DNA of 49,164 bases, taken from contig VMEV01000010.1 of the NCBI GenBank assembly GCA_007375725.1, positions 1 to 49,164 on the forward strand. The letters run 5' to 3'. The notes beneath the pieces were generated by a model. It did no database searches and was not told where the DNA came from. It worked only from the letters and a program-made list of their open reading frames with translations. A program made the position numbers and the translations under genes. Position 1 is the first letter of the stretch. Each line of letters begins with the position of its first letter. The stretch comes from Parcubacteria group bacterium Greene0416_36 (GTDB lineage Bacteria; Patescibacteriota; Patescibacteriia; VMEV01). Below are positions 10,338 to 43,258 of this stretch, in pieces.

Positions 10338-10598
10338 TCAAATTTTGGCGTCCGTTTCTCCCAAAAAAAGAGACCCAATTTTGCCGTTCAAATCATTGAT
10401 TTGCTTCGTAAAATCAAGGCGGAGCTCTTCTTCTGTACGGACGAAATTCGCGCGCTGATCCACGCTTAAATTTTTATCCGGATCTGCGATCATTGCATCC
10501 AACAAGTCCAATAAGTTTTCCACATAGCGGGACTGTTTTTGGATCTGGCTGTAATAGTAAGAAACGATTTCTTTTTTTTGTTCTTGGGATAAAGCCAT
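10338..10598 (-). CDS. Small hypothetical helical protein
   Basis: ORF from MALSQEQ, tightly packed in the minus-strand gene run. Confidence 0.6.
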   Translation of the reverse strand: MALSQEQKKEIVSYYYSQIQKQSRYVENLLDLLDAMIADPDKNLSVDQRANFVRTEEELRLDFTKQINDLNGKIGSLFLGETDAKI

Positions 10599-10602
10599 AA
10601 AA

Positions 10603-10821
10603 TTATTGCGCCAATTTTGCTCTAGCGGCACGAGTATCGGCGGCATCAACCTCTCTCATTTTCTCCATGATAACTGAGGGCAAAGGAGAACGTTTCAGCT
10701 CAGCAACCCAGCGGTCCGCCAGAGCGACTTTTTCTTTGTCCGACAAAGTTTCCGGTGTTTCCATCTTTTCTTCTGACGGAGCATCCGCTAATTTTTTTTC
10801 TGTCCTAATCTGTTCAGCCAT
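10603..10821 (-). CDS. Small hypothetical protein
   Basis: ORF from MAEQIRT; 4-nt gaps to both neighbours. Confidence 0.6.
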   Translation of the reverse strand: MAEQIRTEKKLADAPSEEKMETPETLSDKEKVALADRWVAELKRSPLPSVIMEKMREVDAADTRAARAKLAQ

Positions 10822-10825
10822 AAAG

Positions 10826-12262
10826 TTACAATAATAATTTAGCGCGCAAATCTTCCATATCGCTCTTTCCATTGCCGTCCGTGTCTTTTTTGAGGGGAGA
10901 TGTCTTGGAAATATTCACCTCATCCCCGTCATCCAGCCCATCGCCATCAGTATCGTTTTTGACAGGATCCGTTCGCACCGAACACACTTCCTCGAAGTCC
11001 GTTAGGCCATCCTTGTCAAAATCCAATTGGACCATCATTTTTTTCTGAGCATCGTCCAGATCACCACAATTTTTAGTTGCGAATCCTCCTAAAACTTCTC
11101 CATAATTGCCGGCAAAAATAACCGGCAAGTTATAGGATCGGCCGAGAAAAGTCCCTTTGGAGCATTGACCGGAGGATAGAGACAGCTCAAAGAATGCGGT
11201 GGGACAGAGCCCAGCGTCCACATCTTCTTTATCGGTTTTCCCGTTTTGGTTCGTGTCGCGGTCCCCCGGGTTAGATCCGTAATCATTGACTTCAATACCA
11301 TCTGATAAACCGTCACCGTCTTTATCCGTACTCAGCGGATCGGAACCAATGCCCAAAAATTCATCTCCATCACCCAAACCGTCGCCATCGGTATCAAACT
11401 TAGTTGGGTCCGTATTGAACCATAATTCTTTCTCATCCGGAATCCCATCTTTGTCATAATCCAAAATAAATTCCGTATTGCTCAATTTGTACGTACAAAC
11501 CGTCTTGGCGGATTCCAATGGAATCTTGGCACAATCTTTGGCGTCTCGGGCCTCGCGATACTGGACCCAGGAACTATATTGATCAAGGACCGTCTTATTT
11601 TTAATCTGGCCCTCGGCTGGAATATCGGATCGAAGCGCATTGACTAAACATAATTTGGAATATTCGAGAGATGTAATGCCGCCACAGACCGAGACACTCT
11701 CTTTGCCAGCGGCGAGAACCGCGAGATTCAAAGCGAGCACGCGGTCCTTGCACTCTACGGCCTCATGGCTATCGTCCAACGAATCGCAAATCCCCGCCTG
11801 GGCCTTATCAACCGCCATAGAGGCAATGCACCGCTCGCGAAGAGATACCGTAGAAATCATGGCGCATTTTTTCGGATCACCGCTCTCTCTGCCTACACGA
11901 AACAGACAATCATTTCTATAACCATCTTCGTAAATACCCAAGCACTGGTCTATGCTTTTGGCATTACTGATCACTTCTGTATGAATAAATTCGTCGATAC
12001 ACCCCTCTTTGGCATCTCCTTCGGCCAAGCCAACACAGCCTTCTTTGGTTGGAATCAAAGGGGGACTCACCAACCTGCCGCCCTCTTCAAAGACCGTATT
12101 GCCGGGTTCATCCAGCAAACGGCGAAAAGCAGGATCTATGCCGCTGGAATCCGGAATCGTCACATCTCCCTCTCCCACGCTGGAAAAAAACCAGACCCCT
12201 CCGGCTAACAAAATAACCGCAGATAAAGCAATGATGGCCCATTGAAATTTAGATAGATTCAT
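10826..12262 (-). CDS. Membrane-anchored Cys-rich protein with Ca-binding DxDxDG (TSP3/binary-toxin-like) repeats
   Basis: N-terminal TM (from MNLSKF), C-x-x-I...C helical repeats, multiple DTDGDGL.DG.E....TDP repeats. Confidence 0.85.
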   Translation of the reverse strand: MNLSKFQWAIIALSAVILLAGGVWFFSSVGEGDVTIPDSSGIDPAFRRLLDEPGNTVFEEGGRLVSPPLIPTKEGCVGLAEGDAKEGCIDEFIHTEVISNAKSIDQCLGIYEDGYRNDCLFRVGRESGDPKKCAMISTVSLRERCIASMAVDKAQAGICDSLDDSHEAVECKDRVLALNLAVLAAGKESVSVCGGITSLEYSKLCLVNALRSDIPAEGQIKNKTVLDQYSSWVQYREARDAKDCAKIPLESAKTVCTYKLSNTEFILDYDKDGIPDEKELWFNTDPTKFDTDGDGLGDGDEFLGIGSDPLSTDKDGDGLSDGIEVNDYGSNPGDRDTNQNGKTDKEDVDAGLCPTAFFELSLSSGQCSKGTFLGRSYNLPVIFAGNYGEVLGGFATKNCGDLDDAQKKMMVQLDFDKDGLTDFEEVCSVRTDPVKNDTDGDGLDDGDEVNISKTSPLKKDTDGNGKSDMEDLRAKLLL

Positions 12263-12272
12263 AGGGTGTAAA

Positions 12273-15266
12273 TTACAAACAGTAACAAGCGGTTTCGAGC
12301 AAATCGTAGCCATGATAAGCACAAGTGTCCCCAGGATTTTCCTGATAGACGGGTGTCTTGCCTCGGGCATTGTCCAGATTGGCAAATCCGGAACAGGTCG
12401 ACACGCCGGTTACGCCATAAGGTTTGCATAAACCGCAAACATTGCTATTGACATCATTAGGCATTGGAGAATAGATGCTTCCTGCGGTTCTCCAATACGA
12501 ATAAGGATCATTAGCCCGGCAATAGTACTCATATTTATCATAGCCGGTAGAGTAATGGTTGGAATAGCTAGGCTGAATACGATCACCCGTATAATAATCC
12601 ATTCCAAAAAAACTCTTACAATTAGTACTTGCTTGGTTGGCGGACAAATTCATTGAGATAGTCGCTATCCCATTATTATTGCAACCACCAGGAGTTGAGA
12701 AGGCATCATCACGAACATATACACAGGCATTGGTCTTAGGGTTAGTAAATCCAACTCCCACGCAGACCCGATTCGTTTTACCGCAAATATCATCGCATCG
12801 AAATCCCTTCTTAAGCGCCGGAAGGCCTGGACTGAAAGCCACCGGTCCGCTGATGGGAACCAAATCCTCTACTCCCGCGCGCACAATCACAAAAGGCTTG
12901 TCTCCAATGAGGCCATCAGCGAATTCAGCCTTTTGATTGATTTCTTTGGATGCGGGATCGGTGGGTGCGGCACAACAATAGTCATGTATGGCTTTATCAA
13001 AAACGTCTGCGCAAACAAGTTTATTGTTCTGGCAGAGGAAAACTCCTTTTTGGCATTCATCGGGCTCGGTAATTCCAATACCTCCCCCACCGACTCGGAT
13101 TTTATCAACATAACAACCTACTCCCAAAGATTCGCCCTTAGGTCCTTTATTGTTGCAAGGCGAATCTTGTGGGAGGAGCTGACAATCTCTCTTGCAAAGA
13201 GTCAGCCTCGCCTTCCATGTGGCTTCATTGTAATTGGGAGGTTTGGACTCTAGAGGATCGCATTGTTCTATACCGGTCACTCGGCCGTCGCCGCAGGTAT
13301 CCGCGTCACATACATCGCCCAGAGGCGCCCAGCCGAATTCTTTCTCTAGTTGGGCGTCAGTATTAGTCTGAAGCGCATCCGAAATAAAGGGACAAAGGTC
13401 CGCGGCTCCGGAGAAACGGATAGAACAGTCTAGGCTCCCTGTATTAACCGTACATTTTCCATTCTCCTTGGCCGGACAAGCACAGACACCATCACCATCG
13501 ATATCATTGTCCGGATCATAGAAACAGCAGTCGCAGACATCGCCTACTCCGTCGGCATCACGGTCTGATTGATCCGTATTGGAAGAAAGAACGCAATTAT
13601 CCTTGGCTCCGGATTTTTCGGGACTTGAAAAACGGGGCCCCGCACAAACGCCATCGCCATCGGCATCATTAGCAGGATCATCAGGACACCAGTCGCAGAT
13701 ATCACCGTAGGCATCTCCGTCCACATTTAGTTGATCTTCGTTGGCATCGTCCACGCAATTATCAGCAGTGTCAATAACCGTATCCTCATCTTTATCCGAC
13801 AAACAGCCCTCCGCAGCGGAGATAAAAAAACGATTACAAATCCACTGGTCGCAATTATCCTGACATTCGGCATTGGAGGGAGTATTGTCTCTAAAATCAC
13901 AGACTTCAAAGCCCTCTTTCTCTCCATTGCCGCACGTGCCAATATCTCCGGAACACGCGTCGCCCAAAAGAGGCCGGCCAGACTCGATTTCCTGCCGCTC
14001 ATCTGTATTTCTCTGATCAGGATTGGGGGCTAGCGGACAATTATCTTCCCCGCCGCGCTTGGTGCCTCCGGATTCGACGCCGCGGAATACGCCGCCGATG
14101 CAGAGGCCGTCGCGGTCGCGGTCATTTTCAGGGTCTAAGGGGCATTCGTCACAGCCGTCTCCCACGCCGTCACGGTCGCGATCACACTGAGCATTGGTTC
14201 GGCGTTCTGGATCGCCCGACTGAGGCTGATAACAAATTCCGGGACGATTGCGGAGCTGGAAGCAGGTCTCGCCAGGGGCGAGCTGATCCACGGTAACAAA
14301 GGCAAATTTCTGATCCTCGGAGCACGCGATATCGCCGAAGCGGTCGCCGGAGGGACAAATATCTAGAGAATTGGGAATACCGTCGCGATCATTGTCGGTC
14401 GTATCCGCGGTCTTGAAGAAAAAACAGCCGGCCGAATCCAGCGGATTATCCACTACACCCTGCCAAGAACCCTCCCCTTTATATTCAAAATTGGCATACA
14501 GCTCGTAGCTGTCGCCATTTTCCATGGAACGATAGCCGTATACCTGGGCTCCGGTGGGACAAAAAAATTGTTTAGAGCGTTCATTCCAGCAAGTCACGGG
14601 ATCCACGTCCTCAGCGCGGCATCCGAAAAATTTATTCTCCGGATCAATGGGAATATCTTTTCCCAGCTCACGGCCCAAGGTCTCCTGCCAGGAAGGCCAG
14701 ACGGAAAAACTCCAGCCCGTCTGGTAACTGCCGGCTCGAAGATCAGGATACACTTTTTTGCCTTTCTTATAATCTTCCAAAATGCGGCGGAGATCATTGA
14801 TTTCCATCACGCGCCGAAGATCTTCCTGAATGCTTTTTTTCACCAGGCCCTCAGGATCAATTTCTTCCCCAATATTAGAATTAAAACGCCAAGTGCGAAT
14901 GAGCTGGCCTAAAATTTCGAGCACTTCCTGCTGGGCTCCTTCATTGAAAGAAATCAAATAAATATTGGAATAAAGCTTATCCCCCACTTTGTTCACAGCC
15001 GCCACATAAATCGTGCGGCCATCCCGGATAGCCGGATAGCCGTCCACCTCCAGCGCTTCCGGTTCCCCTGGATTAGGCACATTCTCCAAATACCATTCCA
15101 AAGGCGATAATATTCCATTGATATAAGTATGCGGATACTGCGCCAAATCCCCGGCATTCTGAATCACACGCACGCCGATCACATTTTGAATGGCAGATGC
15201 CTTGTCAGGTAAAGACAGCTCAAAGATAATAAAAAAAGATAAAATTAAGAGAAGCCGACGGAGCAT
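12273..15266 (-). CDS. Large secreted Cys-rich surface protein with thrombospondin type 3 repeats and a pilin-like segment
   Basis: Signal peptide; DNCP..PNPDQ.N.D.DG.GD.CD repeats; CGNG..E..E.CD repeats; D.RR......L...LE.Y......YP segment. Confidence 0.85.
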   Translation of the reverse strand: MLRRLLLILSFFIIFELSLPDKASAIQNVIGVRVIQNAGDLAQYPHTYINGILSPLEWYLENVPNPGEPEALEVDGYPAIRDGRTIYVAAVNKVGDKLYSNIYLISFNEGAQQEVLEILGQLIRTWRFNSNIGEEIDPEGLVKKSIQEDLRRVMEINDLRRILEDYKKGKKVYPDLRAGSYQTGWSFSVWPSWQETLGRELGKDIPIDPENKFFGCRAEDVDPVTCWNERSKQFFCPTGAQVYGYRSMENGDSYELYANFEYKGEGSWQGVVDNPLDSAGCFFFKTADTTDNDRDGIPNSLDICPSGDRFGDIACSEDQKFAFVTVDQLAPGETCFQLRNRPGICYQPQSGDPERRTNAQCDRDRDGVGDGCDECPLDPENDRDRDGLCIGGVFRGVESGGTKRGGEDNCPLAPNPDQRNTDERQEIESGRPLLGDACSGDIGTCGNGEKEGFEVCDFRDNTPSNAECQDNCDQWICNRFFISAAEGCLSDKDEDTVIDTADNCVDDANEDQLNVDGDAYGDICDWCPDDPANDADGDGVCAGPRFSSPEKSGAKDNCVLSSNTDQSDRDADGVGDVCDCCFYDPDNDIDGDGVCACPAKENGKCTVNTGSLDCSIRFSGAADLCPFISDALQTNTDAQLEKEFGWAPLGDVCDADTCGDGRVTGIEQCDPLESKPPNYNEATWKARLTLCKRDCQLLPQDSPCNNKGPKGESLGVGCYVDKIRVGGGGIGITEPDECQKGVFLCQNNKLVCADVFDKAIHDYCCAAPTDPASKEINQKAEFADGLIGDKPFVIVRAGVEDLVPISGPVAFSPGLPALKKGFRCDDICGKTNRVCVGVGFTNPKTNACVYVRDDAFSTPGGCNNNGIATISMNLSANQASTNCKSFFGMDYYTGDRIQPSYSNHYSTGYDKYEYYCRANDPYSYWRTAGSIYSPMPNDVNSNVCGLCKPYGVTGVSTCSGFANLDNARGKTPVYQENPGDTCAYHGYDLLETACYCL

Positions 15267-15271
15267 AAAAC

Positions 15272-15351
15272 AATTACGAATTACGAATGACGAATTACGA
15301 ATGGATCAGCCAGTTGTTCAATTCGTAATTCGTAATTTCTAATTCGTAATT
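15272..15351. repeat. Inverted heptamer tandem repeats (AATTACG/CGTAATT); related tracts at 29008-29073, 36032-36135, 43235-43268, 43633-43666, 45147-45178 and 46520-46548
   Basis: aattacgaattacgaatgacgaattacgaat ... attcgtaattcgtaatttctaattcgtaatt. Confidence 0.8.
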
Positions 15352-17149: not shown

Positions 17150-17713
17150 TTATTTCTCCTCCTGCTCACGTCCGACGTATTCCCGATTCTCGGTATTGAT
17201 GATCACGACTTCGCCTTCTTTGATGAAGAGCGGCACATTAATGGTGGCTCCGGTTTCGAGCTCGGCCTGCTTCATGACGGCTCCGGCGCTGTCTCCTTTG
17301 ACCCCGGGAGCGGTATTGACCACTTTGAGCGATACTTTCTTGGGAAGAGAAATGGTCACCAAATCATCCCCCAAAAAGAGTCCGTCCACCTTGGCTTCGG
17401 CCACGAGAAACTGGCCGTCTTCGCCTACCGCTTCGGTGCTAACCTGAAACTGCTCAAAATTGTCGTCCATGAAATAATAATTCGTGGCGTCTTTGTAAGT
17501 GAATTGCATGGCACGGCGAGTCACATCCGCCTCCTGTACGACTTCGTCCGATCGGAAGGTAACTTCGAGCGTCTTGCCATTTTTGACATTGCGCATCTTG
17601 ATGCGGCACATCATGCGGCGCTGAGCCATTTTGGAACGGTTCACCTCGGAAACGATCCAAGGATCATTCTCGTACATCATGGCCATTCCTTTGTGAAAAT
17701 CTCCGGCAGTCAT
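17150..17713 (-). CDS. efp: Translation elongation factor P
   Basis: YFMD.NFEQ, TAPGVKGDSA...K.AELETG..I.VPLFI.EG...I.T....Y..R. Confidence 0.95.
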   Translation of the reverse strand: MTAGDFHKGMAMMYENDPWIVSEVNRSKMAQRRMMCRIKMRNVKNGKTLEVTFRSDEVVQEADVTRRAMQFTYKDATNYYFMDDNFEQFQVSTEAVGEDGQFLVAEAKVDGLFLGDDLVTISLPKKVSLKVVNTAPGVKGDSAGAVMKQAELETGATINVPLFIKEGEVVIINTENREYVGREQEEK

Positions 17714-17842
17714 AAATTAGGCTATTAGGCATTAGCTTCTTAGCTTTTTAGAAGACAAAGTAACTAATCCGAAATGGATATAAAAAATAAAAATCTACTT
17801 ATAAACCTATATAATTAAGACCAAATTAGCCTTTTTGGGAGG

Positions 17843-17881
17843 AAAAAGCAAATCCTCGAGAGGAAGTTTCCAATCGAGGAT
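17843..17881 (-). terminator. Terminator closing array 1
   Basis: ATCCTCGA...TCGAGGAT stem followed by TTGCTTTTT on the minus strand. Confidence 0.6.
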
Positions 17882-17888
17882 ATATTTC

Positions 17889-18865
17889 GCCAAATAGATT
17901 TGGCATAAACAAAAATTCGAATTAAAGCGCAAAATATTAGTAAACAAGAAAGAAATTTGTTATAAAACTTCGCGAGAAAATTCTCGCCTCAAAACTAATT
18001 CAACGCATTATAATCTGCAGAAATTCGAAATATAGTGAGGGATAGTACGTCGATACATTAAAGAGTACTGCCTATTCGAGACCTAAAAAAAAGTCTCCAG
18101 TAACTTAAAAGGCTACAATTAAATCTACGCTACTGGACCGTAGTCCGGTAGGGATATCATCATCCGTCCTTTATAAAAGGACCAGAACCATAATCTAATA
18201 AAAAACAAGACGTTCAACATAAATCCGTAGAAAACATGCCGAGCTTCGAAAAGCTCCTAGGCATTAAAACAGGGTGAAACACGGCAAAGGGACCTACAGA
18301 ACACTGATCCAAAATCCCACAACTTTCATGTCTATTATGACCAGACACCTTAAACGAACAATAATGTGCGGCAACACAATCCGAACTACGACACTTAACT
18401 TGGATATCCGAGCAAAAATGCTCCTGAAAAGTAGAGAAATCTGAAACAGTGAACAGGACCCTAGGGGACCAAAATACACTACACATCCGTCCGAAGAATT
18501 CGGACCAATAATAAACCGCAGACTGCAGGAAACAAATATAGGACATCTCGCAGGACATTGATTTCGCCCTTGATAAAAGGGCCAGAAGAACAATTTATCT
18601 TACTTTAAGATAAGATAATTTAATAAATTACAAGGCAAATAAATACATACCGAGCCAATGAAGGCTCCTTGGCACTACAATAAACTAAAGTAAAACAGAC
18701 CATAGTAATCTAAAGGACGCCACTCCATCCGCGAGCAAAGACTCGCCAAAAATCTAAATGACCGCAAGCTAAACCAAGGGAAATAAAACCAATAAGCCCA
18801 AAGGCAAACAATCCGAGAACGAAAAGCTCTCCTATGCAATATTCTTCCTAAACAAACAGAAAGGC
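17889..18865 (-). ncRNA. Putative guide-RNA array 1: 12 hairpins and 11 complete pentamer-periodic tracts
   Basis: Hairpins start at 17889, 17972, 18078, 18166, 18241, 18328, 18410, 18489, 18566, 18652, 18731 and 18815. After each of the first 11, the + strand has a purine every 5 nt for 10-16 steps, starting exactly 5 nt from the stem. No credible ORF. Confidence 0.85.
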
Positions 18866-18890
18866 CTTTTCAAAGAACAGCAACCCAATA

Positions 18891-18919
18891 AATCTAGTCT
18901 AATAGCCAAAGAATGTCAA
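18891..18919 (-). promoter_or_regulatory. sigma70 promoter for array 1
   Basis: Minus strand TTGACA-17 nt-TAGATT, followed by boxA-like TGTTCTTTGAA (18869-18879). Confidence 0.75.
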
Positions 18920-18930
18920 TCCTCCCAACG

Positions 18931-18970
18931 AAAAAACAGCTTATTTTGTTCAATAAGCTGTTTTCTGTTT
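18931..18970 (-). terminator. Intrinsic terminator after the helicase gene
   Basis: aaaacagcttatt-ttgttc-aataagctgtttt. Confidence 0.7.
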
Positions 18971-18996
18971 CTTCTAAAAAACAAAAAGTAATATAG

Positions 18997-21030
18997 TTAT
19001 TTCTTCAAAAACGCACGGGCATCCAGACAACAATCTGCAAAGGTTTTGCCAGATATATAAGAGGTTCTTAGCTTTTCAGGGAGGGCGTAATAGACAAGCC
19101 CCTTAAATCTCTGATCATAACAGATCGTAACGGATTTGATTTTCCCGTCGCGTTCCGTACGGCCGCGGGCTTGCTTGATACGGATCTTGACCAGCCATTG
19201 ATGGATAGCGAAAGCGCCGTTTTTGCCGAACTTGCGATTCTCGAACTTCGACTCGGGAGAATTCGGATCAGGGTATCCAGGACGAAGGGTGATCACTACT
19301 TGAGCCAGACCATCCGGCAAGTCAATCCCTTCGGAAAAATTCTGCTCCGTACCGAGTAAAACCATGCCTTTGCCACCGCGAAACAATTCCACAGCTTCTT
19401 TGGGAGTTTTCGGCATAGTACCCAGCATCGCATCCGATCTCGGACTATTCGAACTGCGACCTCGGGAATAAGTGATGACATCGAGATTTTCTTTGTCCGG
19501 AGAGGAATAGAATAAGAACTTATCCAACTCTTGATGCGATCCAACCAGAACTAAAACACGAATCCCTTCGGCGTTAAAAAGTTTGCATTCCTTAACAATA
19601 CTTTCCAGGCTCTTGGCAGGTTCTCTATCCGAACGCACACTGTAAGCCAGACTCGGAGTGTCGCTCGGCATATAAATACGGGTGTTCTCAGCCGGGAAAC
19701 CGGATTCGAGAAAAAGATACTGAGGAAAATCAATGCCGGAAATATACCCAAAAACAGTACGGTCGCCAATGGTGGCGGACATCGCCAAAGTTCGGGACAA
19801 AAGCACTTTCTTACGAATCAGAGGCCTCACATGATGGGACTGGATGGTAAGGCGATTGATGACTTTTGGCCCCCTTCCTCCGTATTCTTCTTCTGGAATG
19901 GGTTCAGACACAAAATAACTGAATACATAGTTGAGTGCCATGTGCTTGATTTCATCATTTTCTTCCTTGGGAATAGCATAACGAAGGGACTGGATGTACC
20001 TCCAAAGATTGAAAAGAAGATTCTGCACCTCATTGAGAGCTTCGCGCCCTCCTTCCGCTTGGCTCGCCATTTTCTCCAATTCATTTTTTTTGGATTCCAA
20101 AGGAGAAGTGTCAATGGCTTCCAAGGCTTTGATGAGTTTTTTGATTTCATCATCTTCCAAGACGATTTTGGTGAAAGGAGGCTTATTCCTAGATACGATT
20201 TTCTTGAACACAACGAGAAATTTCTTGAGAGAGACGGACACACTTTCGTCCACTTTCTCCACGACCTCAATCGCGCGTTCTAAATGCCAGTCAGTAATAT
20301 CGTAAGAGAGGACATTGCGCACCAGTGGCGTGATATTGTGAACTTCATCCAGGACCACCGCGTCATGATCTTCCCAAACCCCTTTCTCGCTTTTAAAAAG
20401 CCTCATGATCAAATAAAAGGCATACGTGGTCACAACAATTCCCTCGTACTGCTTAGCCGCATATTTATGAGCATAATACGGACAGGGAACCGCCCCTTCT
20501 TCAAGAGTTTTTCCAGTCGCCTGATCCACCCGATGACCGCAGCTTCGCAGTATCGCACAAGGAATTTCATTGGCTTTCCACGCCGGCTTTTGATCCGGAT
20601 AATAAAGACAATCATGAGACTCTCTGCCTTCGAGCACAAATACCATATCCGAAAAACGCTTAGCGATTTGTTTGGCTTGAGCCAAATTGGGCACCACGTA
20701 GAAAATTCGTTTATAGCCATGCAATTTCCGAAGAACTGAAAGCCACACGATACCAATGAGAGACTTGCCGACGCCAGTTTCTCCCTCCAATAAAACTTGA
20801 TCATGGCCTTGGGATAGAAAACGAAAAGCCTTGAGCTGAGCCTCTCTCATTCGGAAATAACGCGGAATATGCCAAGGAAAACACTCCACATAAGGAGCCA
20901 ATGCCGGATTGGCAGCGACTTCCACAGCAAGCATTTCTCTTGTATACCCTTCCTGAGGCGATTCTTGTACGATCGGAATAGGGGAAGGTGTATCTGCAAT
21001 TGAACCCAATAATAATTGATCCGCCATCAT
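18997..21030 (-). CDS. DinG/Rad3-family SF2 helicase with probable FeS-binding cysteines
   Basis: GETGVGKS (motif I), DEVH (II), SAT (III), EGIDLP (V), QARGRTER (VI); GRESHDC...PC....C...PCPYY cysteine cluster. Confidence 0.88.
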   Translation of the reverse strand: MMADQLLLGSIADTPSPIPIVQESPQEGYTREMLAVEVAANPALAPYVECFPWHIPRYFRMREAQLKAFRFLSQGHDQVLLEGETGVGKSLIGIVWLSVLRKLHGYKRIFYVVPNLAQAKQIAKRFSDMVFVLEGRESHDCLYYPDQKPAWKANEIPCAILRSCGHRVDQATGKTLEEGAVPCPYYAHKYAAKQYEGIVVTTYAFYLIMRLFKSEKGVWEDHDAVVLDEVHNITPLVRNVLSYDITDWHLERAIEVVEKVDESVSVSLKKFLVVFKKIVSRNKPPFTKIVLEDDEIKKLIKALEAIDTSPLESKKNELEKMASQAEGGREALNEVQNLLFNLWRYIQSLRYAIPKEENDEIKHMALNYVFSYFVSEPIPEEEYGGRGPKVINRLTIQSHHVRPLIRKKVLLSRTLAMSATIGDRTVFGYISGIDFPQYLFLESGFPAENTRIYMPSDTPSLAYSVRSDREPAKSLESIVKECKLFNAEGIRVLVLVGSHQELDKFLFYSSPDKENLDVITYSRGRSSNSPRSDAMLGTMPKTPKEAVELFRGGKGMVLLGTEQNFSEGIDLPDGLAQVVITLRPGYPDPNSPESKFENRKFGKNGAFAIHQWLVKIRIKQARGRTERDGKIKSVTICYDQRFKGLVYYALPEKLRTSYISGKTFADCCLDARAFLKK

Positions 21031-21123
21031 TTTTTCCTTTCAGGAAAATTAATAAGAAACAAACTAAAACACGAACAGGTTCATTCAATCAGAAAACCCA
21101 TAATTTGTAAAGACTCGTCCAAT

Positions 21124-21153
21124 AAAAAAACACTCTCTTGGCGAGAATGTTTT
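21124..21153 (-). terminator. Possible terminator/attenuator between the RAMP-like gene and the helicase
   Basis: Minus strand aaaacattctc-gccaa-gagagtgtttt, then ttt. Confidence 0.5.
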
Positions 21154-21186
21154 AATTGTCCAATATTTCACTATAAAATCTATCGA

Positions 21187-22053
21187 TTATGTTTTTCCGG
21201 AATTCGCAGGAAGAGAAACTCCTTCCTTCACTTCTTCCTCTTCCATTTTATACGGAAGCGAAATGTATTCATAATCGTCTTCTTTCAAGAGTTCTTTCTT
21301 TACTTCTTGCACACGAACAATCTTGAAGGTACCGTTGGTGCCGTTACAGTTTACACGATAGGACCCGATTCCATAGATCACACCGCCGTTTTTGAGGCAT
21401 TGAAGCGCGATATCGATAGTCTTGGGACCCAAACGATCTTTGACTTCGCAGAGGAATTTGATCTGGGTGCCTTCGGGGTATTCGGGACGCACAATGCGGC
21501 AAGTGATTTCAGCTTTTGGAATAACACCGCGGTCTTCATTGACACGGAATTTTTCCTTTCCGACAATGCACATTTCCTGATCCACAAATTCGGCAGTATA
21601 CCCCAAAATCCTGAAAAAAGAACCGATAATGCTTCCGCTGGTCTTGGTGGAAACTTTCTTGCGATTGCCCAAATCCACATCACATCCCCCGCAACGAGTA
21701 GCCGCATAAATCCACTTGGCAGGCACGCCCGATTTACCAGAATCAGGATCGATCCACACTTTTTTCCTGGCAATTTCTATGCCCGGAAGCCCTTTTACCT
21801 TAACTTTCTTATCAGCAGAATCGATTTCCAATAATTTCTCTGGAGTCATCGGATCGCCCAAAAGTGGAGAGGTCGTTTGGATCGTGATTTCCAAAATGGT
21901 GATATATTTGGTTCCATACGAAACAGGAGAGGAACCTTTCTTTTCCTTTTTCTTCCCCTTTTCAGCGCTCGCCGCACTATCAGCAACGGTTTCAACCACG
22001 GGAATCGGTTCAGTCGCGACAGCAGAGGAACTATCATTTTTTTGTCTAGCCAT
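21187..22053 (-). CDS. Stand-alone RAMP/Cas7-like protein (288 aa)
   Basis: AAGGAG RBS before ATG 22053. LEITIQTTSPLL first strand, G.P...I.AA helix, RPEY...T.I.F and a C-terminal glycine-rich loop GG..YGIGSYR....G..GTF, which is the RAMP/Cas7 layout. Judged by eye, no HMM run. Confidence 0.75.
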   Translation of the reverse strand: MARQKNDSSSAVATEPIPVVETVADSAASAEKGKKKEKKGSSPVSYGTKYITILEITIQTTSPLLGDPMTPEKLLEIDSADKKVKVKGLPGIEIARKKVWIDPDSGKSGVPAKWIYAATRCGGCDVDLGNRKKVSTKTSGSIIGSFFRILGYTAEFVDQEMCIVGKEKFRVNEDRGVIPKAEITCRIVRPEYPEGTQIKFLCEVKDRLGPKTIDIALQCLKNGGVIYGIGSYRVNCNGTNGTFKIVRVQEVKKELLKEDDYEYISLPYKMEEEEVKEGVSLPANSGKT

Positions 22054-22112
22054 GCTAGATCTCCTTAAAAACAAAATACTCAATCTACACAAAACACTAA
22101 AAAATAACAATC

Positions 22113-22353
22113 GAGGTTCAAAGACCCCCTTTACAATACACTACTTAAAAATAAACAGATGAAAAATGAAGGAACATACTCTATTTCGAGGTTAAAACCT
22201 CCAAAACATTAACTTACGAAACAACAAATTAATTAACACCGTTTTAAAGAAATCAATAAAACAGTATATACCGCCCGCATAATGCAGGCCTAAACCTCAC
22301 AGGGATTGACGCAAATCCGCGCAATTATACTCAGAGGTAATCTGCAGGAAAAT
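22113..22353 (-). ncRNA. Putative guide-RNA array 2 (3 units) in the leader of the RAMP-like gene
   Basis: Hairpins 22113-22128, 22188-22201 and 22273-22289; purine every 5 nt on + for 11, 13 and 12 steps from 22133, 22206 and 22294; G.U pairs form only on the minus strand. Confidence 0.82.
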
Positions 22354-22499
22354 TGTCGTTCTAATTGTAAAGAACGTGTTCATCCAAGCATAACCCCAAA
22401 TACTTGTCAAATCTTCCAGGATATGCTTCAATGATGAGTCCAATGTAATTTCAGACCGAGAGACTATAAAACAAATTCCAATCAAAACAGGAGAAACAA

Positions 22500-23489
22500 A
22501 TGAACGATATCGCAACAAGACCAGTACGCGAAAAGAGTCCATGGACCGTGGCCTTTGAAAACAGAAAACATCTCGGAGATTTTTCTACCCCAGCTTGGAA
22601 ACAGGCATATGGTATTATCAATAAAGATTTTTCCAGATTCGAAATACTCGACTGCCCAAATAAAGCGGGACTTACCATTGACTGCGGGCACGCCAGAATC
22701 AAAAACCAAGCAATCGGGATAGAAGGAAACACCTTAATGGTGCACATCTCCGATGTCGCAAGCTTCATTCCCAAAGACAGCCCTCTGGATGTCGAAATGC
22801 AGAGCCGAGTCATATCCATACAAAATTCCAGGATTCTCCCCTTCCGGTTAGCAAAGGAACAGTTCTCGCTGGAACAGAATCAGAAAACCAAATGCCTCAC
22901 GTTCCAATGGGCATTCGATGAATACGGAGAAATCAATCAGTTGCGACGAAAAATATACCATTCCAATGTCGAGGTCCCGATATCGATTTCATTTGAACAA
23001 GCCGATGGCATCCTCGAGGATCCTCTACACAAATACCACCCAGTCATACGAAGCCTCAAATCGATCGGAGAACATCTGGTCGACCTGCGCATCCGCAATG
23101 AGTGGACATTCACGCGCGAACGAAAAAAAACATGGGTGGAAAAAAACGGACAATGGATTTTCACAGACTATATCGACGGGTCTCAATCCCCCAATGACTG
23201 GATCATGCAGGAGGTCATGATTCTAGTGAATTACACCGTGGCATCCCTGTTAGACCAATTGGGTATCCATGGATGCTACACCGATCCCTATCGCTCTCCC
23301 AATGGTATCCGCTATTGCCAAGCCACAGCCCCCATGCATAATTTGGAAGATCTTGTAAATCAAAGGATTCTATTGGCATTATTATCACTCGGGAAAATTC
23401 CTATACCCTATACCCTGGAAGAAATGGAGGAAATCAAAACCAAAACCAATCGCATGTACTTCGCCCGATCTTCGGGAGGGAAAAAATAA
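22500..23489 (+). CDS. RNB (RNase II/R catalytic)-domain protein, predicted inactive
   Basis: TID...LMVHISDVASFIP.DSPLD.E..R..S, FSL, EVMILVN and ATAPM..LEDLVNQRIL match RNB motifs; the catalytic DxDD is replaced by IKNQ. Confidence 0.75.
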   Translation: MNDIATRPVREKSPWTVAFENRKHLGDFSTPAWKQAYGIINKDFSRFEILDCPNKAGLTIDCGHARIKNQAIGIEGNTLMVHISDVASFIPKDSPLDVEMQSRVISIQNSRILPFRLAKEQFSLEQNQKTKCLTFQWAFDEYGEINQLRRKIYHSNVEVPISISFEQADGILEDPLHKYHPVIRSLKSIGEHLVDLRIRNEWTFTRERKKTWVEKNGQWIFTDYIDGSQSPNDWIMQEVMILVNYTVASLLDQLGIHGCYTDPYRSPNGIRYCQATAPMHNLEDLVNQRILLALLSLGKIPIPYTLEEMEEIKTKTNRMYFARSSGGKK

Positions 23490-23500
23490 AAAACAAACAA

Positions 23501-23661
23501 TTCTGTCCTGTCTATTTGCCTAGATCAAAACAAACTAAATTTGAATTTAGGTCCTTTATAATAAAGGACGAAAAAATTTCACATTATTCACGTCAAACAA
23601 ACCTAATTCACGTGGACTTAATTTCATTCCTGTTCGTCTCTGAGCCTCTCTAATCGAGGCT
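23501..23661 (+). ncRNA. Putative guide-RNA array 3 (2 units), opposite orientation, downstream of RNB-like gene 1
   Basis: Pyrimidine every 5 nt at 23501-23546 (10 steps) and 23588-23638 (11 steps); each tract ends 5 nt before a hairpin (23551-23569, 23643-23661) that is followed by GAAA/GGAAAT. Confidence 0.78.
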
Positions 23662-23668
23662 GGAAATC

Positions 23669-23717
23669 AAAAAGTAGCTTCTTCTCAAATTTCAGAAAAA
23701 GCTACTTTTATTTTTTT
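23669..23717. terminator. Bidirectional terminator between convergent arrays 3 and 4
   Basis: AAAAGTAGCTT...AAGCTACTTTTATTTTTTT. Confidence 0.7.
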
Positions 23718-23718
23718 C

Positions 23719-23957
23719 AGCCCCCAGAGAGGGCTCTTGAATATACTATAATTTAGAGTGCCTGAAAGAACAGAACAATAAGGCACGGAAAAGCAAACCG
23801 CGTTTTTAGAAAAACGCCAACACTTAACTCTTGATCGAAATAAAATAATACACAGGAATAAACTATAATAGAACAGCATCCGAGTATGGTGAGTACTCCT
23901 AGAATTGAATGGAATTTACAACAAAGGACAATGATGAGCACCAATCTACAGTAAAAG
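23719..23957 (-). ncRNA. Putative guide-RNA array 4 (3 units)
   Basis: Hairpins 23719-23735, 23800-23817 and 23882-23898; purine every 5 nt from 23740 (12 steps), 23822 (10 of 11) and 23903 (11). Confidence 0.82.
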
Positions 23958-23966
23958 TACCCAATG

Positions 23967-23995
23967 AAACTAGCAATTGGATAGAGGGATGTCAA
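23967..23995 (-). promoter_or_regulatory. sigma70 promoter for array 4
   Basis: Minus strand TTGACA-17 nt-TAGTTT with TG extended -10. Confidence 0.7.
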
Positions 23996-24081
23996 GAGCA
24001 AGCCCTTGTACAATCGATCCGGATATGCTTCAATACTCTCGATTTTCAGTATATTTATCTCTCATTTTAAGGAGTCCAAAA

Positions 24082-25029
24082 ATGGCTAAAAATGGCCAAA
24101 AAAAGAAGATCAACTGGAAAGAGTATTTTGAAAAAAGACAGAATTCGTATCTGTCGGATGCGTCACGCGAAGAATTCGTCAAACATCTGCATTCTGCAGC
24201 ATCCGAAAATAAAAAAATAGAAAGGACAATAATCACCAGCATCACATTCGACAAGGAAATCTATATGAATGAGGCGATACTGATCGAATATCCCTATATT
24301 CATATCAGCGTCCCGGATATAGTCAGTCTCGTTACTCCCAAGAAGACACTGGATAAAGAATTGTACGAGAGAGCCTCTTCCGTTAAAGATAACCCTCTTT
24401 TTCCGGAAGATCTCATCAACCTTCGATCCTCTTTCAAGCATGATGAACTTCGAAATGCTTATACTCTCTCTTGGAAATTTGGCGATGCCGGAGAAATTCA
24501 AGAACCCAAATTTTATCCCAGCCAAATTCTATCAATTGGATATATCCAACCTTCGCCAAGCGCTGAAGCTAAAGACTATCCCAAGAACTTGGAACAAATC
24601 GGACTAAAACTCATTGATCGCAGAATCAAAACGTTTCAGCTCTTCAAGAAAGAGGAAAAATTGCCAGTTGCAGAGAAAGAAGGCTATAAAATTTTCGAAT
24701 GCTACCTCAGAAACTCCACCATGAGCTGGGTTGAAAAAGAACTTGCCATCTTTGCCAATATCCAAGCTGGGGAACTATTTCATCAGAAAGGCATAGCCGC
24801 ATGTTTTGCCTCTCCCTATGGTTCTCCCTGTGAAACCCACTATGCTCCCATCATGCGGCCGCTGGATTCCTATCGAGATCTCATCAATCAGCGAGCACTC
24901 TTGTCAATTTTCACCGGACTCAAAAAGGATTTCCCCTATACTCCCGCGCAGATAGCGAAAATAAATGAAAGGATTCAAACACGGTACAGCGCGTGGAAAA
25001 ATCTAGAAAAGAAAAATTCTAATCTATGA
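24082..25029 (+). CDS. Second RNB-like protein (paralogue), predicted inactive
   Basis: AAGGAG RBS before ATG 24082; IHISVPDI...LD.E..ERASSV, ELAIFAN and HYAPIMRPLDSYRDLINQRAL; catalytic aspartate motif lost. Confidence 0.7.
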   Translation: MAKNGQKKKINWKEYFEKRQNSYLSDASREEFVKHLHSAASENKKIERTIITSITFDKEIYMNEAILIEYPYIHISVPDIVSLVTPKKTLDKELYERASSVKDNPLFPEDLINLRSSFKHDELRNAYTLSWKFGDAGEIQEPKFYPSQILSIGYIQPSPSAEAKDYPKNLEQIGLKLIDRRIKTFQLFKKEEKLPVAEKEGYKIFECYLRNSTMSWVEKELAIFANIQAGELFHQKGIAACFASPYGSPCETHYAPIMRPLDSYRDLINQRALLSIFTGLKKDFPYTPAQIAKINERIQTRYSAWKNLEKKNSNL

Positions 25030-25056
25030 AATTGATCGGTTTCCAAAAAAACCATC

Positions 25057-25100
25057 AAAAAAGTAGCCGATATTTAACCATCAGGCTACTTTTATTTTTT
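25057..25100. terminator. Bidirectional terminator between RNB-like gene 2 and array 5
   Basis: AAAAGTAGCC...GGCTACTTTTATTTTTT, nearly the same as 23669-23717. Confidence 0.7.
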
Positions 25101-25102
25101 CC

Positions 25103-25482
25103 GTGGATTGAATCCACCTGCACACAAATTGATTATGGCTTGAGTCAAGGCAATCCGAAATAATATAGAGAAATCTACGATAATTCAAAAAACAGAACAG
25201 CAATCCGCGCTCTTTTCTAAAAGCGCCTTAAATTTACATTAAATCAATGTAAGTTACACCGGTCGAGACTAAAGAGGTACAATTCGCCTGATAAGTCAGG
25301 CCAGCGATAAAAACCAACTCAAACTACATAAATCTGATATACGTAAATATGACGAAACCATTCGCGTCTGAAAAGACGCCTAGACAAGAAAGCAACGAAA
25401 TCAACACTAAGCCAAATAACAGAACAATAATCCGCGCCCCATTCAATGAGCGCCTACAATAAAAACAAGATTAAATAGAAAA
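25103..25482 (-). ncRNA. Putative guide-RNA array 5 (5 hairpins; 4 complete tracts plus a short leader tract)
   Basis: Hairpins 25103-25117, 25207-25226, 25286-25301, 25364-25379 and 25434-25453; purine every 5 nt from 25122 (17 steps), 25231 (11), 25306 (11), 25384 (10) and 25458 (5). Confidence 0.85.
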
Positions 25483-25505
25483 CACAACAAATTAAGAACT
25501 CATCA

Positions 25506-25534
25506 AACTTATACAATCAATCAATGATTGTCAA
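25506..25534 (-). promoter_or_regulatory. sigma70 promoter for array 5
   Basis: Minus strand TTGACA-17 nt-TAAGTT, then boxA-like GTTCTTAA. Confidence 0.7.
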
Positions 25535-25539
25535 GGGTG

Positions 25540-25571
25540 TGTCGCAAAAACATAATAATGTCTTTGCGACA
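25540..25571. promoter_or_regulatory. Palindromic operator-like site TGTCGCAA-N16-TTGCGACA (second copy at 34375-34406)
   Basis: Identical half-sites and spacing at two loci, each between back-to-back TTGACA boxes. Confidence 0.65.
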
Positions 25572-25577
25572 AAATTC

Positions 25578-25606
25578 TTGACAATTGATTTTAGAAAATT
25601 TATAAT
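25578..25606 (+). promoter_or_regulatory. Consensus sigma70 promoter of the mazEF-like operon
   Basis: TTGACA-17 nt-TATAAT. Confidence 0.85.
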
Positions 25607-25629
25607 ACACACAAATAATGTGTAAAGAT

Positions 25630-25890
25630 ATGTCAACTATCACACTCTCACCCAATACGAAAGAACGCATCAATGTCATGCTTCCACGACGGATCATCCG
25701 TTCGATCGGCCGTCTATCGAAAAATAGAAAACGAAGCCAATTCATCGCAACCGCGGTCGATTTTTATATTGATTCAATGCAAAACAAAAAACTCAAATCT
25801 CTTCTACAAGAAGGAGCGCAAAAAAGATCCGAAAGAGATCAGATAATCACCGAAGAAATGGGCCTCATCGATACGGTTTATGAAAAATAA
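25630..25890 (+). CDS. Ribbon-helix-helix antitoxin (MazE/EndoAI-like)
   Basis: RINVMLP...I......RSQFI..AV pattern; overlaps the start of the toxin gene. Confidence 0.8.
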   Translation: MSTITLSPNTKERINVMLPRRIIRSIGRLSKNRKRSQFIATAVDFYIDSMQNKKLKSLLQEGAQKRSERDQIITEEMGLIDTVYEK

Positions 25891-26248
25891 GACCCTTTTC
25901 CCAAAGCGAGGCGAAATATATCTCGTCAATTTTGATCCTACAGTAGGAGCGGAGATGAAAAAAACACGGCCGGCTCTCATTTTACAAAATGATATTGCAA
26001 ACAAATATAGCGCCATAACCATCATCGCAGCAATCACCTCTCAATTCGAACTGCCTCTCTACCCTACTGAAGTTTTATTGGACTCTTCCGCATGCCGGCT
26101 AGACAAAGAATCAGTCATAGTACTCAATCAAATCCGATCCATCGACAAAACACGCCTGATCAAAAAAATCGGAGAAATTCCAGCGAAGTCATTACAGCAA
26201 ATAGAAATAGCACTAAAAATAAGCCTGGGTCTTATAAAGATAGAATAA
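25880..26248 (+). CDS. mazF: PemK/MazF-family toxin endoribonuclease
   Basis: KRGEIYLVNFDPTVGAE.KKTRPALILQND..N, QIRSIDK.RL. Confidence 0.93.
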   Translation: MKNKTLFPKRGEIYLVNFDPTVGAEMKKTRPALILQNDIANKYSAITIIAAITSQFELPLYPTEVLLDSSACRLDKESVIVLNQIRSIDKTRLIKKIGEIPAKSLQQIEIALKISLGLIKIE

Positions 26249-26361: not shown

Positions 26362-28950
26362 ATGTCCGAACCCACACCCATGCTACGCCAGTATTTTGAG
26401 ATCAAGCGCCAGCATCCGGACTCGATCGTGATGTTTCGATTGGGGGATTTTTATGAGATGTTTGGGGAGGACGCGAAGGTGGCGTCGAGGATTTTGGGGA
26501 TCACCCTCACGGCTCGTGGACGCGGGACGGAGAATGAGATCGCCATGTGCGGCATCCCCCAGCATAATATCACCGTGCATGTGGGGAAACTCACAACCGC
26601 CGGAAAATCCGTGGCGATCTGCGACCAGACCAGTGATCCGAATCTGCCGGGAATAGTGGAGAGGAACGTGACAAGAGTGGTCACGCCAGGAACCACGCTC
26701 GACTCGAGCAATCTGGACGAGAAAAAAAATAATTATATCGTGGCGATCATAGCCCAAAAAGGACGATACGGTTTGGCCCTCGCGGATCTGGGAACCGGAC
26801 ACTTTCAGGCAACAGAAATTGACGGCGGAGAAGAGCTGACCCAACAAATACAAAAACTCCGCCCCAGCGAGGTACTTCATGACGGGGAGCCTCTCTCCGG
26901 ATCTTTTTTCCAGAAAGAATTCCATCTGCCGGACTGGGAAGGACCCAAGACACTATTTGCGGCGCAGTTTGGCAGGCCCGATCTCTCAGGATTCGGCTTT
27001 ATCAATATGCCTTTGGCCGAAGAGGCGGCGGCGATTCTGCTTTATTATCTCAAAAATACCCAAAAAACCGCGCTCTCCCATATCGACTCCATTTCTCGCT
27101 ATGTCTGGGAAGACAAAATGATTCTGGATGCCTCGACCATCCGCAATCTAGAATTGTTTGAAAATAATTACGACCGGAGCCGGAATAATACCCTGTTCTC
27201 AATTTTGGATTTCACGGCCACCTCGATGGGGGCTAGAGTTTTACGAAACTGGATCACCTTGCCCCTCGGAGACAAAGACCGAATAGAAGAGCGCTCCGAA
27301 GGAGTCGAGTGGCTCTCTAAAAACAAAGAAGCAAGAACCGCGGTCAAAGAGCATCTGGACAAAATAGCGGACATCGAAAGAATCTCCGGGCGTATCGGAT
27401 GCCTGCGCGCCGGGCCCAAGGATCTGATTGCCATGGCTCACTCTCTTCGAGAAATTCCAGAGATTAAAGAAATACTCAAACCCTCCCAAGAATCAGCGAA
27501 TTCAATATTAAATAAGCTGGAAAAAGAATTGGATCCAATAGAACCGGTGGGCGAACTTATCGCCAAAAGTATTGCGGAGGAGCCTCCTGCGCTCGTTTCG
27601 GACGGCGGAGTGATCCGCAATGGATACAATCCAGATCTTGACCTACTCCGGTCCATTTCCAAAGGCGGCAAGGACTGGATCGGGGAATTTGAGACACGGG
27701 AAATCGAAAAAACAAAAATTTCGTCGCTCAAGGTACGGTACAACCGTGTCTTCGGGTATTATATCGAAATTTCAAAAACCAATTTGGACCGCGTCCCGCC
27801 CCATTATATCCGGAGGCAAACCCTCTCCAATGCTGAACGCTTCACGGTCGAAGAGCTCAAGAATTACGAAGACAAAATATTGGGAGCCGAGGCGAAAATT
27901 TTGTCGCTGGAAAATGAACTATGGAATCAAATAATCGGACAAATTTCCAAATATTTGGGAGAGATCAAAAAACAATCGCATTTGCTGGCTGAGATCGACG
28001 CCCTCTATTCCCTGGCGGAATGCGCCTACCAGCGGAATTATACCAAACCCGAATTCGTGGAATCCGACGAAATTCGGATTGAAGAAGGACGCCACCCGGT
28101 CATCGAGACCTTACTTCCAGCGGGCACCTACATCCCAAATGACACTCTTTTGAATAACCAAACCCACCAATTCATTTTGCTCACTGGCCCCAATATGGCC
28201 GGTAAATCCAGCTATCTTCGGCAAGTGGCTCTCATCTTGCTCCTCTCCCACATCGGCAGTTTTGTGCCGGCTAAAAAAGCCGCGGTCTCAATCACCGACC
28301 GTATTTTCACGCGCGTTGGAGCCGAGGACCGCCTCTCGGAAGGGCAGTCCACCTTCATGGTGGAAATGCAGGAGGCCTCCAATATCATTCATAACGCGAC
28401 TGGAAACAGCCTTATTTTGCTCGACGAGCTGGGTCGCGGCACCAGCACTTACGATGGAGTGTCTTTGGCCTGGGCCATCTCGGAATACATCCACAATCAT
28501 CTCAAAGCCAAAACCATTTTTGCGACCCACTATCATGAACTCATCGAGTTCGCGAATTCTCTTCCTCGCGCGAAAAATTATTCCGTGGCCGTGTCGGAAC
28601 ATAAAGGAGGCGTGGTATTTCTCCGAAAAATTATTCCTGGCGGGATCAATAAAAGCTACGGCATTGCCGTAGCCGCGCTCGCCGGGCTCCCCAAACAAAT
28701 CCTCGAGCGAGCCCATGAACTACTGGCGGATCTAGAAGGACAAATCCATCTGGGAAGCAAACCCAAATCCAATCAAACCGCCCTCCCCTTTTTCGCTCCC
28801 CCGCCCAAATCCGATCCAGCAGTAGAAACGGTCCTTCTCGAAATCAAAAACATCGATATCAACCAAACCACGCCGATGGAGGCGATGAGGAAATTGGAGG
28901 AGTGGAAAAATAAGCTAACAAACAACAAATCCCCCTTAATCCCCCTTTGA
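26362..28950 (+). CDS. mutS: DNA mismatch repair protein MutS
   Basis: TPMLRQY, FRLGDFYEMF, TGPNMAGKSSYLRQ, DELGRGTST and ATHYHEL motifs. Confidence 0.98.
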   Translation: MSEPTPMLRQYFEIKRQHPDSIVMFRLGDFYEMFGEDAKVASRILGITLTARGRGTENEIAMCGIPQHNITVHVGKLTTAGKSVAICDQTSDPNLPGIVERNVTRVVTPGTTLDSSNLDEKKNNYIVAIIAQKGRYGLALADLGTGHFQATEIDGGEELTQQIQKLRPSEVLHDGEPLSGSFFQKEFHLPDWEGPKTLFAAQFGRPDLSGFGFINMPLAEEAAAILLYYLKNTQKTALSHIDSISRYVWEDKMILDASTIRNLELFENNYDRSRNNTLFSILDFTATSMGARVLRNWITLPLGDKDRIEERSEGVEWLSKNKEARTAVKEHLDKIADIERISGRIGCLRAGPKDLIAMAHSLREIPEIKEILKPSQESANSILNKLEKELDPIEPVGELIAKSIAEEPPALVSDGGVIRNGYNPDLDLLRSISKGGKDWIGEFETREIEKTKISSLKVRYNRVFGYYIEISKTNLDRVPPHYIRRQTLSNAERFTVEELKNYEDKILGAEAKILSLENELWNQIIGQISKYLGEIKKQSHLLAEIDALYSLAECAYQRNYTKPEFVESDEIRIEEGRHPVIETLLPAGTYIPNDTLLNNQTHQFILLTGPNMAGKSSYLRQVALILLLSHIGSFVPAKKAAVSITDRIFTRVGAEDRLSEGQSTFMVEMQEASNIIHNATGNSLILLDELGRGTSTYDGVSLAWAISEYIHNHLKAKTIFATHYHELIEFANSLPRAKNYSVAVSEHKGGVVFLRKIIPGGINKSYGIAVAALAGLPKQILERAHELLADLEGQIHLGSKPKSNQTALPFFAPPPKSDPAVETVLLEIKNIDINQTTPMEAMRKLEEWKNKLTNNKSPLIPL

Positions 28951-43230: not shown

Positions 43231-43258
43231 AACAGAATTAAGAATGAAAAATGAAGAA

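Follow-up and report, generated by a model that had tools for sequence, protein, structure and literature searches.

A very probable chromosomal VIPR locus with a G-poor pentamer scaffold and a DinG-like helicase in a Parcubacteria genome

VIPR is a CRISPR-like form of RNA-guided DNA recognition that was first described in 2026 (bioRxiv 10.64898/2026.04.26.720920). As set out in that preprint, its parts are the RAMP protein Vipr, an accessory vap gene and vrRNAs composed of 9–16 YNNGG repeats with a structured 3′ tail. The repeats spell a gapped code, with GGY gripped, NN paired to DNA and one base of the target skipped (10.64898/2026.04.26.720920, 10.64898/2026.04.26.720927). Seven VIPR types are distinguished, of which types III–V carry DNA nucleases or helicases, and NNNGG, YNNNG and NNNNG are given as alternative repeats (10.64898/2026.04.26.720920). 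In the structure from Escherichia phage SUSP1, one protomer sits on each repeat; H17 and D177 serve as readers of the first G and R138 and W178 as readers of the second, and R179 helps to form a pyrimidine pocket (10.64898/2026.04.26.720927). Non-canonical repeat clusters with the motifs WGT/NN, TGH/NN, GAC/NN and CAC/NN have also been reported (10.64898/2026.10.21.760802), and a further preprint deals with VIPR (bioRxiv 10.64898/2026.10.15.759431).

The DNA analysed here (the window) is one entire contig of 49,164 nt (VMEV01000010.1) from Parcubacteria group bacterium Greene0416_36, whose 1.03-Mb genome is rated 100% complete and comprises 25 contigs. Four A-rich non-coding stretches lie between efp (17150–17713) and mutS (26362–28950). 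Since pentamer tracts, a Vipr homologue and an adjoining DinG-like helicase occur together in this region, we consider it very probable that the locus is a chromosomal VIPR system consisting of a vipr gene, the helicase and about 23 vrRNA units in four arrays, with the tracts as the guide parts. The features are as follows.

17888–18888, minus strand: predicted vrRNA array 1, 12 head-to-tail units (pentamer tract, then 3′ hairpin tail in RNA sense), from hairpins, in-phase runs and periodicity
18584–18649, minus strand: putative guide tract v4, 13 pentamers; tail hairpin at 18564–18583; A fraction at fixed phase 1.00
18669–18728, minus strand: putative guide tract v3, 12 pentamers; tail hairpin at 18650–18668
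18748–18812, minus strand: putative guide tract v2, 13 pentamers; tail hairpin at 18729–18747
18891–18919, minus strand: sigma-70-like promoter TTGACA-17-TAGATT facing array 1, 10 of 12 consensus matches; a consensus match only
18933–18964, no strand assigned: 13-bp perfect palindrome, terminator-like on both strands, between the helicase stop codon and the array promoter
18997–21030, minus strand: DinG/XPD-like helicase, 677 aa; Pfam Helicase_C_2, DEAD and DEAD_2
21187–22053, minus strand: vipr gene, predicted minimal RAMP protein of 288 aa whose first 50 or so residues are disordered and Lys-rich
22111–22355, minus strand: predicted vrRNA array 2, 3 units, upstream of vipr on the same strand, from hairpins and in-phase runs
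22500–23489, plus strand: RNB-domain protein 1, 329 aa; Pfam RNB, E 2.3e-26; catalytic Asp cluster missing
23715–23960, minus strand: predicted vrRNA array 3, 3 units, between the two RNB-like genes; first hairpin read by eye
24082–25029, plus strand: RNB-domain paralogue 2, about 315 aa; Pfam RNB, E 6.7e-15; also without the Asp cluster, as read by eye
25101–25520, minus strand: predicted vrRNA array 4, 5 units; weak pattern in the last tract (25455–25520)

The locus resembles the type II VIPR of SUSP1 in having a small RAMP gene next to long non-coding stretches and, within these, arrays of units with 9–16 tandem pentamers, a conserved trinucleotide, a variable dinucleotide and a structured 3′ tail. 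However, the scaffold is GGY in SUSP1 and W-K-Y here (GGY in 9 of 280 units), and the tail, a fixed-sequence pseudoknot in SUSP1, is a plain hairpin of variable stem. The accessory gene is the DNA-binding vap1 in SUSP1 and a DinG-like helicase here, four units compare with about 23, and a phage location compares with a bacterial chromosome. The residues that contact the first G in SUSP1 Vipr are also different in the present Vipr. With VIPR types III–V, as these appear in the accessible text on them, the locus shares a helicase accessory gene as well as a cellular location and a degenerate repeat. Measured against the NNNGG, YNNNG and NNNNG repeats of that text, the last G is kept in just 30% of units here. 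Among the non-canonical motifs in the accessible part of 10.64898/2026.10.21.760802, WGT/NN is the nearest: a five-base period, an altered trinucleotide and a Vipr-like fold are held in common, whereas the middle base here is more often U than G and arrays there have 10 repeats compared with 10–16 here. Since the preprints allow for related consensus sequences (NNNGG, YNNNG, NNNNG; WGT, TGH), the missing GGY does not exclude membership.

The five-base rhythm of the tracts is genuine, with very high significance. For 20 tracts put in register at the hairpin end, the period-5 G-statistic was 295, compared with 11.8 in 500 shuffles (sd 4.5, maximum 29.6) and 11.7 at random places in the window (maximum 32.4). 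The statistic still reached 240.7 without the three tracts noted initially, and in a Fourier scan the v2 tract gave the strongest period-5 peak of the window. Periods 3, 4 and 6–9 stayed at chance level in the 20 hairpin-anchored tracts; with period 3 at chance, the tracts are not coding. Counted from the hairpin end on the plus strand, the register reads W-N-N-A-M, with A making up 77% at position 4. For the 15 tracts that lie between two hairpins, the phase ran without slips when anchored on the upstream hairpin of the plus strand (G 270.8). Tract lengths are not multiples of five, and anchoring on the downstream hairpin therefore abolished the phase (G 34.5).

A scan with the pattern (C/T)CG-stem-loop-stem-CC returned 20 good hairpins in non-coding stretches, spaced by about 80 nt. 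Behind these canonical hairpins lie 20 tracts; three more (17906, 18350 and 23737) were found by a position-weight scan for in-phase runs and stand behind variant hairpins that were read by eye. The resulting total of 23 agrees with the number given in an earlier note made from the letters of this DNA. In RNA sense, each unit reads 5′-(W-K-Y-N-N) repeated 10–16 times, then an unpaired G, the hairpin and G(G/A)AU. Thus, the structured tail follows directly 3′ of the tract, the register is locked to the hairpin, and in 20 of 20 units the unpaired G ahead of the hairpin occupies the second-G slot of the last repeat. Throughout the genome, clusters of at least three array-type hairpins are confined to this contig (1 of 25).

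The stem of the tail, 5–8 bp in length, varies in sequence yet always pairs. Across stem pairs 1–5, all 100 cells pair when read in the minus sense, four of them as G·U, while the plus sense gives 96 Watson–Crick cells and four A·C mismatches. When 3′ arms were dealt at random among the hairpins, 58 cells paired on average and at most 72. As the mismatches become G·U on the minus strand, the molecule that functions is a single strand of minus sense. Each of stem pairs 2–5 occurs in two to four standard pair types, with G·U left out of the count, and the stem is therefore kept by compensatory change.

The earlier note had described the pentamers as a three-base scaffold with a two-base variable payload. 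Its reading of 18751–18810 was exact: the segment holds 12 pentamers whose plus-strand positions 4–5 are ct tg gc ct cc gg ta cc aa ca gc ca. Over the three tracts it had considered (38 units), plus-strand position 1 is, as claimed, always a purine (A 36, G 2), position 2 is mostly A or C (30 of 38 units), and positions 4 and 5 are varied (1.98 and 1.87 bits). Position 3 carries 1.87 bits in the same tracts and is thus as variable as payload, so that the three-base scaffold was overstated there. Over all 280 units, the composition in RNA sense is as follows.

RNA position 1: A/U 77%, G+C 23%; 1.77 bits
RNA position 2: U 53%, G 30%; 1.62 bits
RNA position 3: U 78%, C 16%, a pyrimidine in 264 units; 1.00 bits
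RNA position 4: mixed, G+C 37%; 1.92 bits
RNA position 5: mixed, G+C 46%; 1.97 bits

RNA position 1, the complement of plus-strand position 3, thus shows a scaffold-like but weak bias, and the 10–16 tandem pentamers alternate conserved positions with a hypervariable dinucleotide. The proposed payload pair does comprise the two positions of highest entropy and most even composition. KY occurs in 221 of the 280 units, NGY in 81 and GGY in 9, which gives the consensus W-K-Y and bears out the remark that true GGY is rare. Because the first scaffold position is only weakly constrained, a division into two scaffold and three payload bases is conceivable. The NN dinucleotide CG (RNA sense) was seen once in 280 units (17906–25520), compared with about 9 expected from base frequencies. 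A weak test for codon-like structure in the series of NN dinucleotides was negative (z 0.14).

At the gathering threshold of Rfam, no family matched anywhere in the window, and neither a hammerhead nor another known RNA was found between units. Promoter-like sites over the region are at shuffle level (19 compared with 17.7), and the site facing array 1 is to be read with this in mind. The sequencing runs that contain the locus number four, all of them DNA and from one groundwater study, and may be where the present DNA originates. Their contigs showed zero differences over 17700–25700 and hence offered no strain contrast between NN and scaffold positions.

The 288-aa product of 21187–22053 is, by profile comparison and structure prediction, a homologue of the RAMP protein Vipr. 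Pfam assigned the ORF to no family, and the single sequence without a family profile matched no relevant PDB chain. HMMER returned 79 relatives, mostly of 190–250 aa, and a profile of 75 of these matched PDB chain 36pp_D, 'SUSP1 Vipr protein', with E 3.6e-16 over chain residues 2–192 of 202. The family of unknown function phrog_4652 was matched by 74 of the 75 aligned relatives, and the ESM Atlas neighbours of the protein are viral. An alignment-based AF2 model (pLDDT 82.1), used because the single-sequence fold reached only pLDDT 31.8, matched Csm3 and type VII Cas7 chains with E of about 1e-7, and the alignment contains the glycine-rich loop G-I-G-S-Y-R. Back-translated Vipr peptides searched in viral contigs gave no match, nor did tblastn of Vipr against the phage collection.

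In the profile alignment, both SUSP1 residues that contact the first G are replaced (H17 by D67 and D177 by S231). By contrast, R138 and R179, which contact the second G and Y, are both kept, as R189 and R233, and W178 corresponds to Y232. This residue pattern would fit a scaffold that has lost the first G and weakened the second but retained Y. At the second scaffold position, 53% of units have U and just 30% have G, despite a kept residue that salt-bridges this G in SUSP1, and the binding mode may therefore differ from that of SUSP1.

The gene adjoining vipr codes for a DNA-related function, as expected for a vap-type gene. The product matched the PADLOC typeIV_DinG model with E 6.2e-40 over the entire profile, and both the vipr and helicase reading frames are intact. 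The DinG-like helicase is likely to be the vipr-accessory (vap) gene. Searches for its peptide patterns in genome and metagenome contigs returned no close relative. A DinG helicase is also a feature of type IV-A CRISPR, and we considered whether the locus might be a type IV-A CRISPR-Cas system; this was rejected, since only the helicase among six neighbouring genes matches a PADLOC type IV model and a scan of the window for an identical direct-repeat array found none. More generally, class 1 CRISPR complexes (Cas7/Csm3 on crRNA) resemble VIPR in the RAMP fold, in one protomer per short RNA segment and in a 3′ hairpin landmark. However, their period is 6 nt compared with 5 nt here, and the locus has neither identical direct repeats nor cas genes. 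Repeat duplication at spacer uptake did not create the units, because their hairpins differ in sequence.

A Vipr match was found in 11 of 401 sampled genomes of the phylum, the present genome counted. In tblastn searches, a helicase homologue adjoined vipr in all nine related loci. Six of these homologues are near full length, with 33–38% identity and Pfam helicase domains in every one, and the other three are truncated, either at a contig end or where the fetched stretch stops. In related loci, most periodic tracts share the strand of vipr; their pentamer is Y-N-N-N-G with a variable third N, one of the alternative repeats named in 10.64898/2026.04.26.720920. One relative, L020 (C1:2500–22000), has the same tract-plus-hairpin units. 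Along with two copies of vipr and a single helicase, it has at least 34 period-5 windows over several kilobases, an array complement exceeding that of the present window.

Two RNB-domain genes are interleaved with arrays 2–4. Protein 1 has IKNQ where RNase R (chain 8cdu_C) has the enzyme's DLDD, and paralogue 2 is about 30% identical to it. No relative of protein 1 was found in a word-based search of 5.8 billion proteins, in 40 related genomes or in the nine related VIPR loci. Both proteins are uncertain members of the VIPR system. The idea that they trim vrRNA 3′ ends at the hairpins was dropped, given the missing catalytic Asp cluster and their absence from the nine related loci. A third, short RNB-domain paralogue, again without the catalytic Asp cluster, lies on contig C19 (44383–45102).

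Several other features of the window were recorded. A MazF/PemK toxin gene and a small upstream partner (25630–26248) directly adjoin array 4, with a perfect TTGACA-17-TATAAT promoter ahead of the pair. A run of large minus-strand genes occupies 8567–15266; a weak Baseplate_J match marks one of them and bacterial TSP3 repeats another, and a 997-aa protein within the run matches no Pfam family. Tandem heptamer arrays, AATTCGT / AATTACG and ATTCTTA / AATTAAG with 4–5 copies each, are found at 15269–15351, 36032–36128, 43234–43268 together with 43632–43665, 45147–45181, 46522–46554 and 29009–29069. Those at 15269–15351 and 36032–36128 are intergenic inverted pairs about 20–30 nt apart. The AATTCGT dimer, with up to 2 mismatches, has 14 matches compared with 0.66 expected. 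The heptamer arrays may correspond to the period-7 arrays mentioned in the accessible part of 10.64898/2026.10.21.760802.

By analogy with the solved system, a mechanism can be proposed for the locus. All of the roughly 23 units would be transcribed from the minus strand, and one Vipr protomer would bind each pentamer, by homology with SUSP1. Vipr would hold the three scaffold bases out of pairing and present the NN bases, and the NN of successive repeats would pair with a DNA strand, with one base skipped between pairs. The 20–32 informative bases per guide that the earlier note had estimated follow from 10–16 units. Its suggestion of a gripped scaffold whose dinucleotides jointly specify a non-contiguous target gains from the published VIPR mechanism and from the adjoining Vipr homologue, although no targets were found. 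For this locus, the gapped-guide mechanism is argued from homology and positional entropies, not from targets.

Within this mechanism, filament assembly would be registered from the 3′ tail and not by reading GGY in each repeat. Such a register is suggested by three features: only the pyrimidine is strongly kept, an invariant G stands by the hairpin, and the phase is locked to it. We further hypothesize, tentatively and with more doubt than conviction, that the clade has largely given up base recognition of the scaffold in each repeat, so that the register is set by the 3′ hairpin with its invariant flanking G and the filament spreads cooperatively over a U-rich, pyrimidine-keeping scaffold. 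If this were true, the first scaffold base would be freed and the pairing rule could differ from NN plus a one-base skip. An altered pairing rule could then be coupled to the DinG-like helicase, and not to silencing alone.

A related reading keeps the VIPR assignment and changes the code: N4, N5 and the base in the first-G slot would pair, the skip would possibly not be one base, and the scaffold would be of the YNNNG type with two gripped bases. The entropy of position 1 (1.87 bits in three tracts, 1.77 overall), the replacement of the first-G readers H17 and D177 by D67 and S231, and the YNNNG tracts of the relatives with their variable third N all speak for it. However, position 1 is A/U in 77% of units, and its G+C of 23%, compared with 37% and 46% at N4 and N5, looks like relaxed composition rather than information. 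A three-base payload with a skip of 0, 1 or 2 also gave no excess in the genome itself, in a search of little power. We regard this other code as unlikely.

The earlier note had proposed to look for an excess of gapped matches, and for no skip length did one emerge from the genome itself, from IMG/VR cores or from JGI metagenomes; the searches are weak, and the code is not refuted by them. In the genome itself with the arrays masked, a two-base payload gave no excess at any skip from 0 to 3, at low power: matches at 80% or more numbered 3, 0, 4 and 4 for skips 0, 1, 2 and 3, compared with 4.4, 3.0, 3.4 and 2.6 for order-shuffled guides. Three-base payloads (skip 0, 1 or 2) and models with four paired and one free base gave 0 matches there, again with little power. 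In IMG/VR, exact cores of eight dinucleotides with a one-base skip were searched for five of the 23 guides and returned 7, 5, 32, 17 and 30 matches, with best flanks of 5/10, 3/8, 7/10, 7/10 and 5/8, respectively. Given the number of matches and the A/T-rich flanks, we judge these compatible with chance. IMG/VR contigs matched by one guide did not converge on a second (3 matches compared with 3.0 in controls). A 9-dinucleotide core of v2, the one guide searched in JGI metagenomes, gave 4 matches with flanks of 1–2 of 8, and array 1 had no blastn match in the phage collection. No self-target was seen here, and the accessible text of 10.64898/2026.04.26.720920 likewise gives none for its systems. 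With exact cores, few guides and the right virus perhaps absent from the collections, these searches neither support nor refute the code.

The empty target searches would also suit arrays that are decaying or idle, being former GGY or NGY vrRNAs that have drifted A/U-rich with no guiding left. The low GGY count (9 of 280), the weak pattern in some tracts (e.g. 18833–18897 and 25455–25519) and the lack of a close relative of the locus in genome and metagenome collections point the same way. However, none of the 15 tracts between two hairpins carries a phase-breaking indel, compensatory changes leave all 100 cells of the tail stems paired, and the reading frames of both vipr and the helicase are unbroken. 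The strong differences in conservation among positions are not what neutral decay would produce. Decay is thus quite improbable, and less probable than the altered code discussed above.

We give very little credence to contiguous guides of the Cascade kind with four paired bases and one flipped base in each subunit, a pairing scheme that the earlier note had offered as its alternative. Vipr is a Cas7-like RAMP, and class 1 CRISPR complexes flip one base per subunit, as related in the accessible text of the 2026 VIPR preprints. Each pentamer, however, has two to three compositionally constrained positions and not one, and in the solved SUSP1 complex the displaced guide bases number three in each repeat (10.64898/2026.04.26.720927). 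A contiguous pattern with every fifth base free had 0 matches in IMG/VR and no excess in the genome itself, and phage blastn was empty. Least credible of all is a role without guiding, as a protein-titrating RNA, a DNA-level periodic element or a degenerate pentanucleotide satellite: the tracts are A/T-rich with a simple repeat period, but within the genome the feature is confined to the vipr locus, the strand-specific G·U pairs indicate a single-stranded minus-sense molecule, and the association of tracts with the gene recurs in related genomes.

Under the preferred reading as a chromosomal VIPR system, the locus adds a case with a G-poor scaffold to VIPR and is not a new kind of system. Its putative gapped RNA guide code could be recognised from raw sequence alone, although such a code was published only in 2026. 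About 23 guide units are carried in a genome of 1.03 Mb, and the helicase-linked clade is present in 11 of 401 genomes of the phylum. The scaffold is the most G-poor among the VIPR scaffolds described in the literature that we found. If active, the locus would show how little GGY a Vipr filament needs, with consequences for guide design and for how the register is set.
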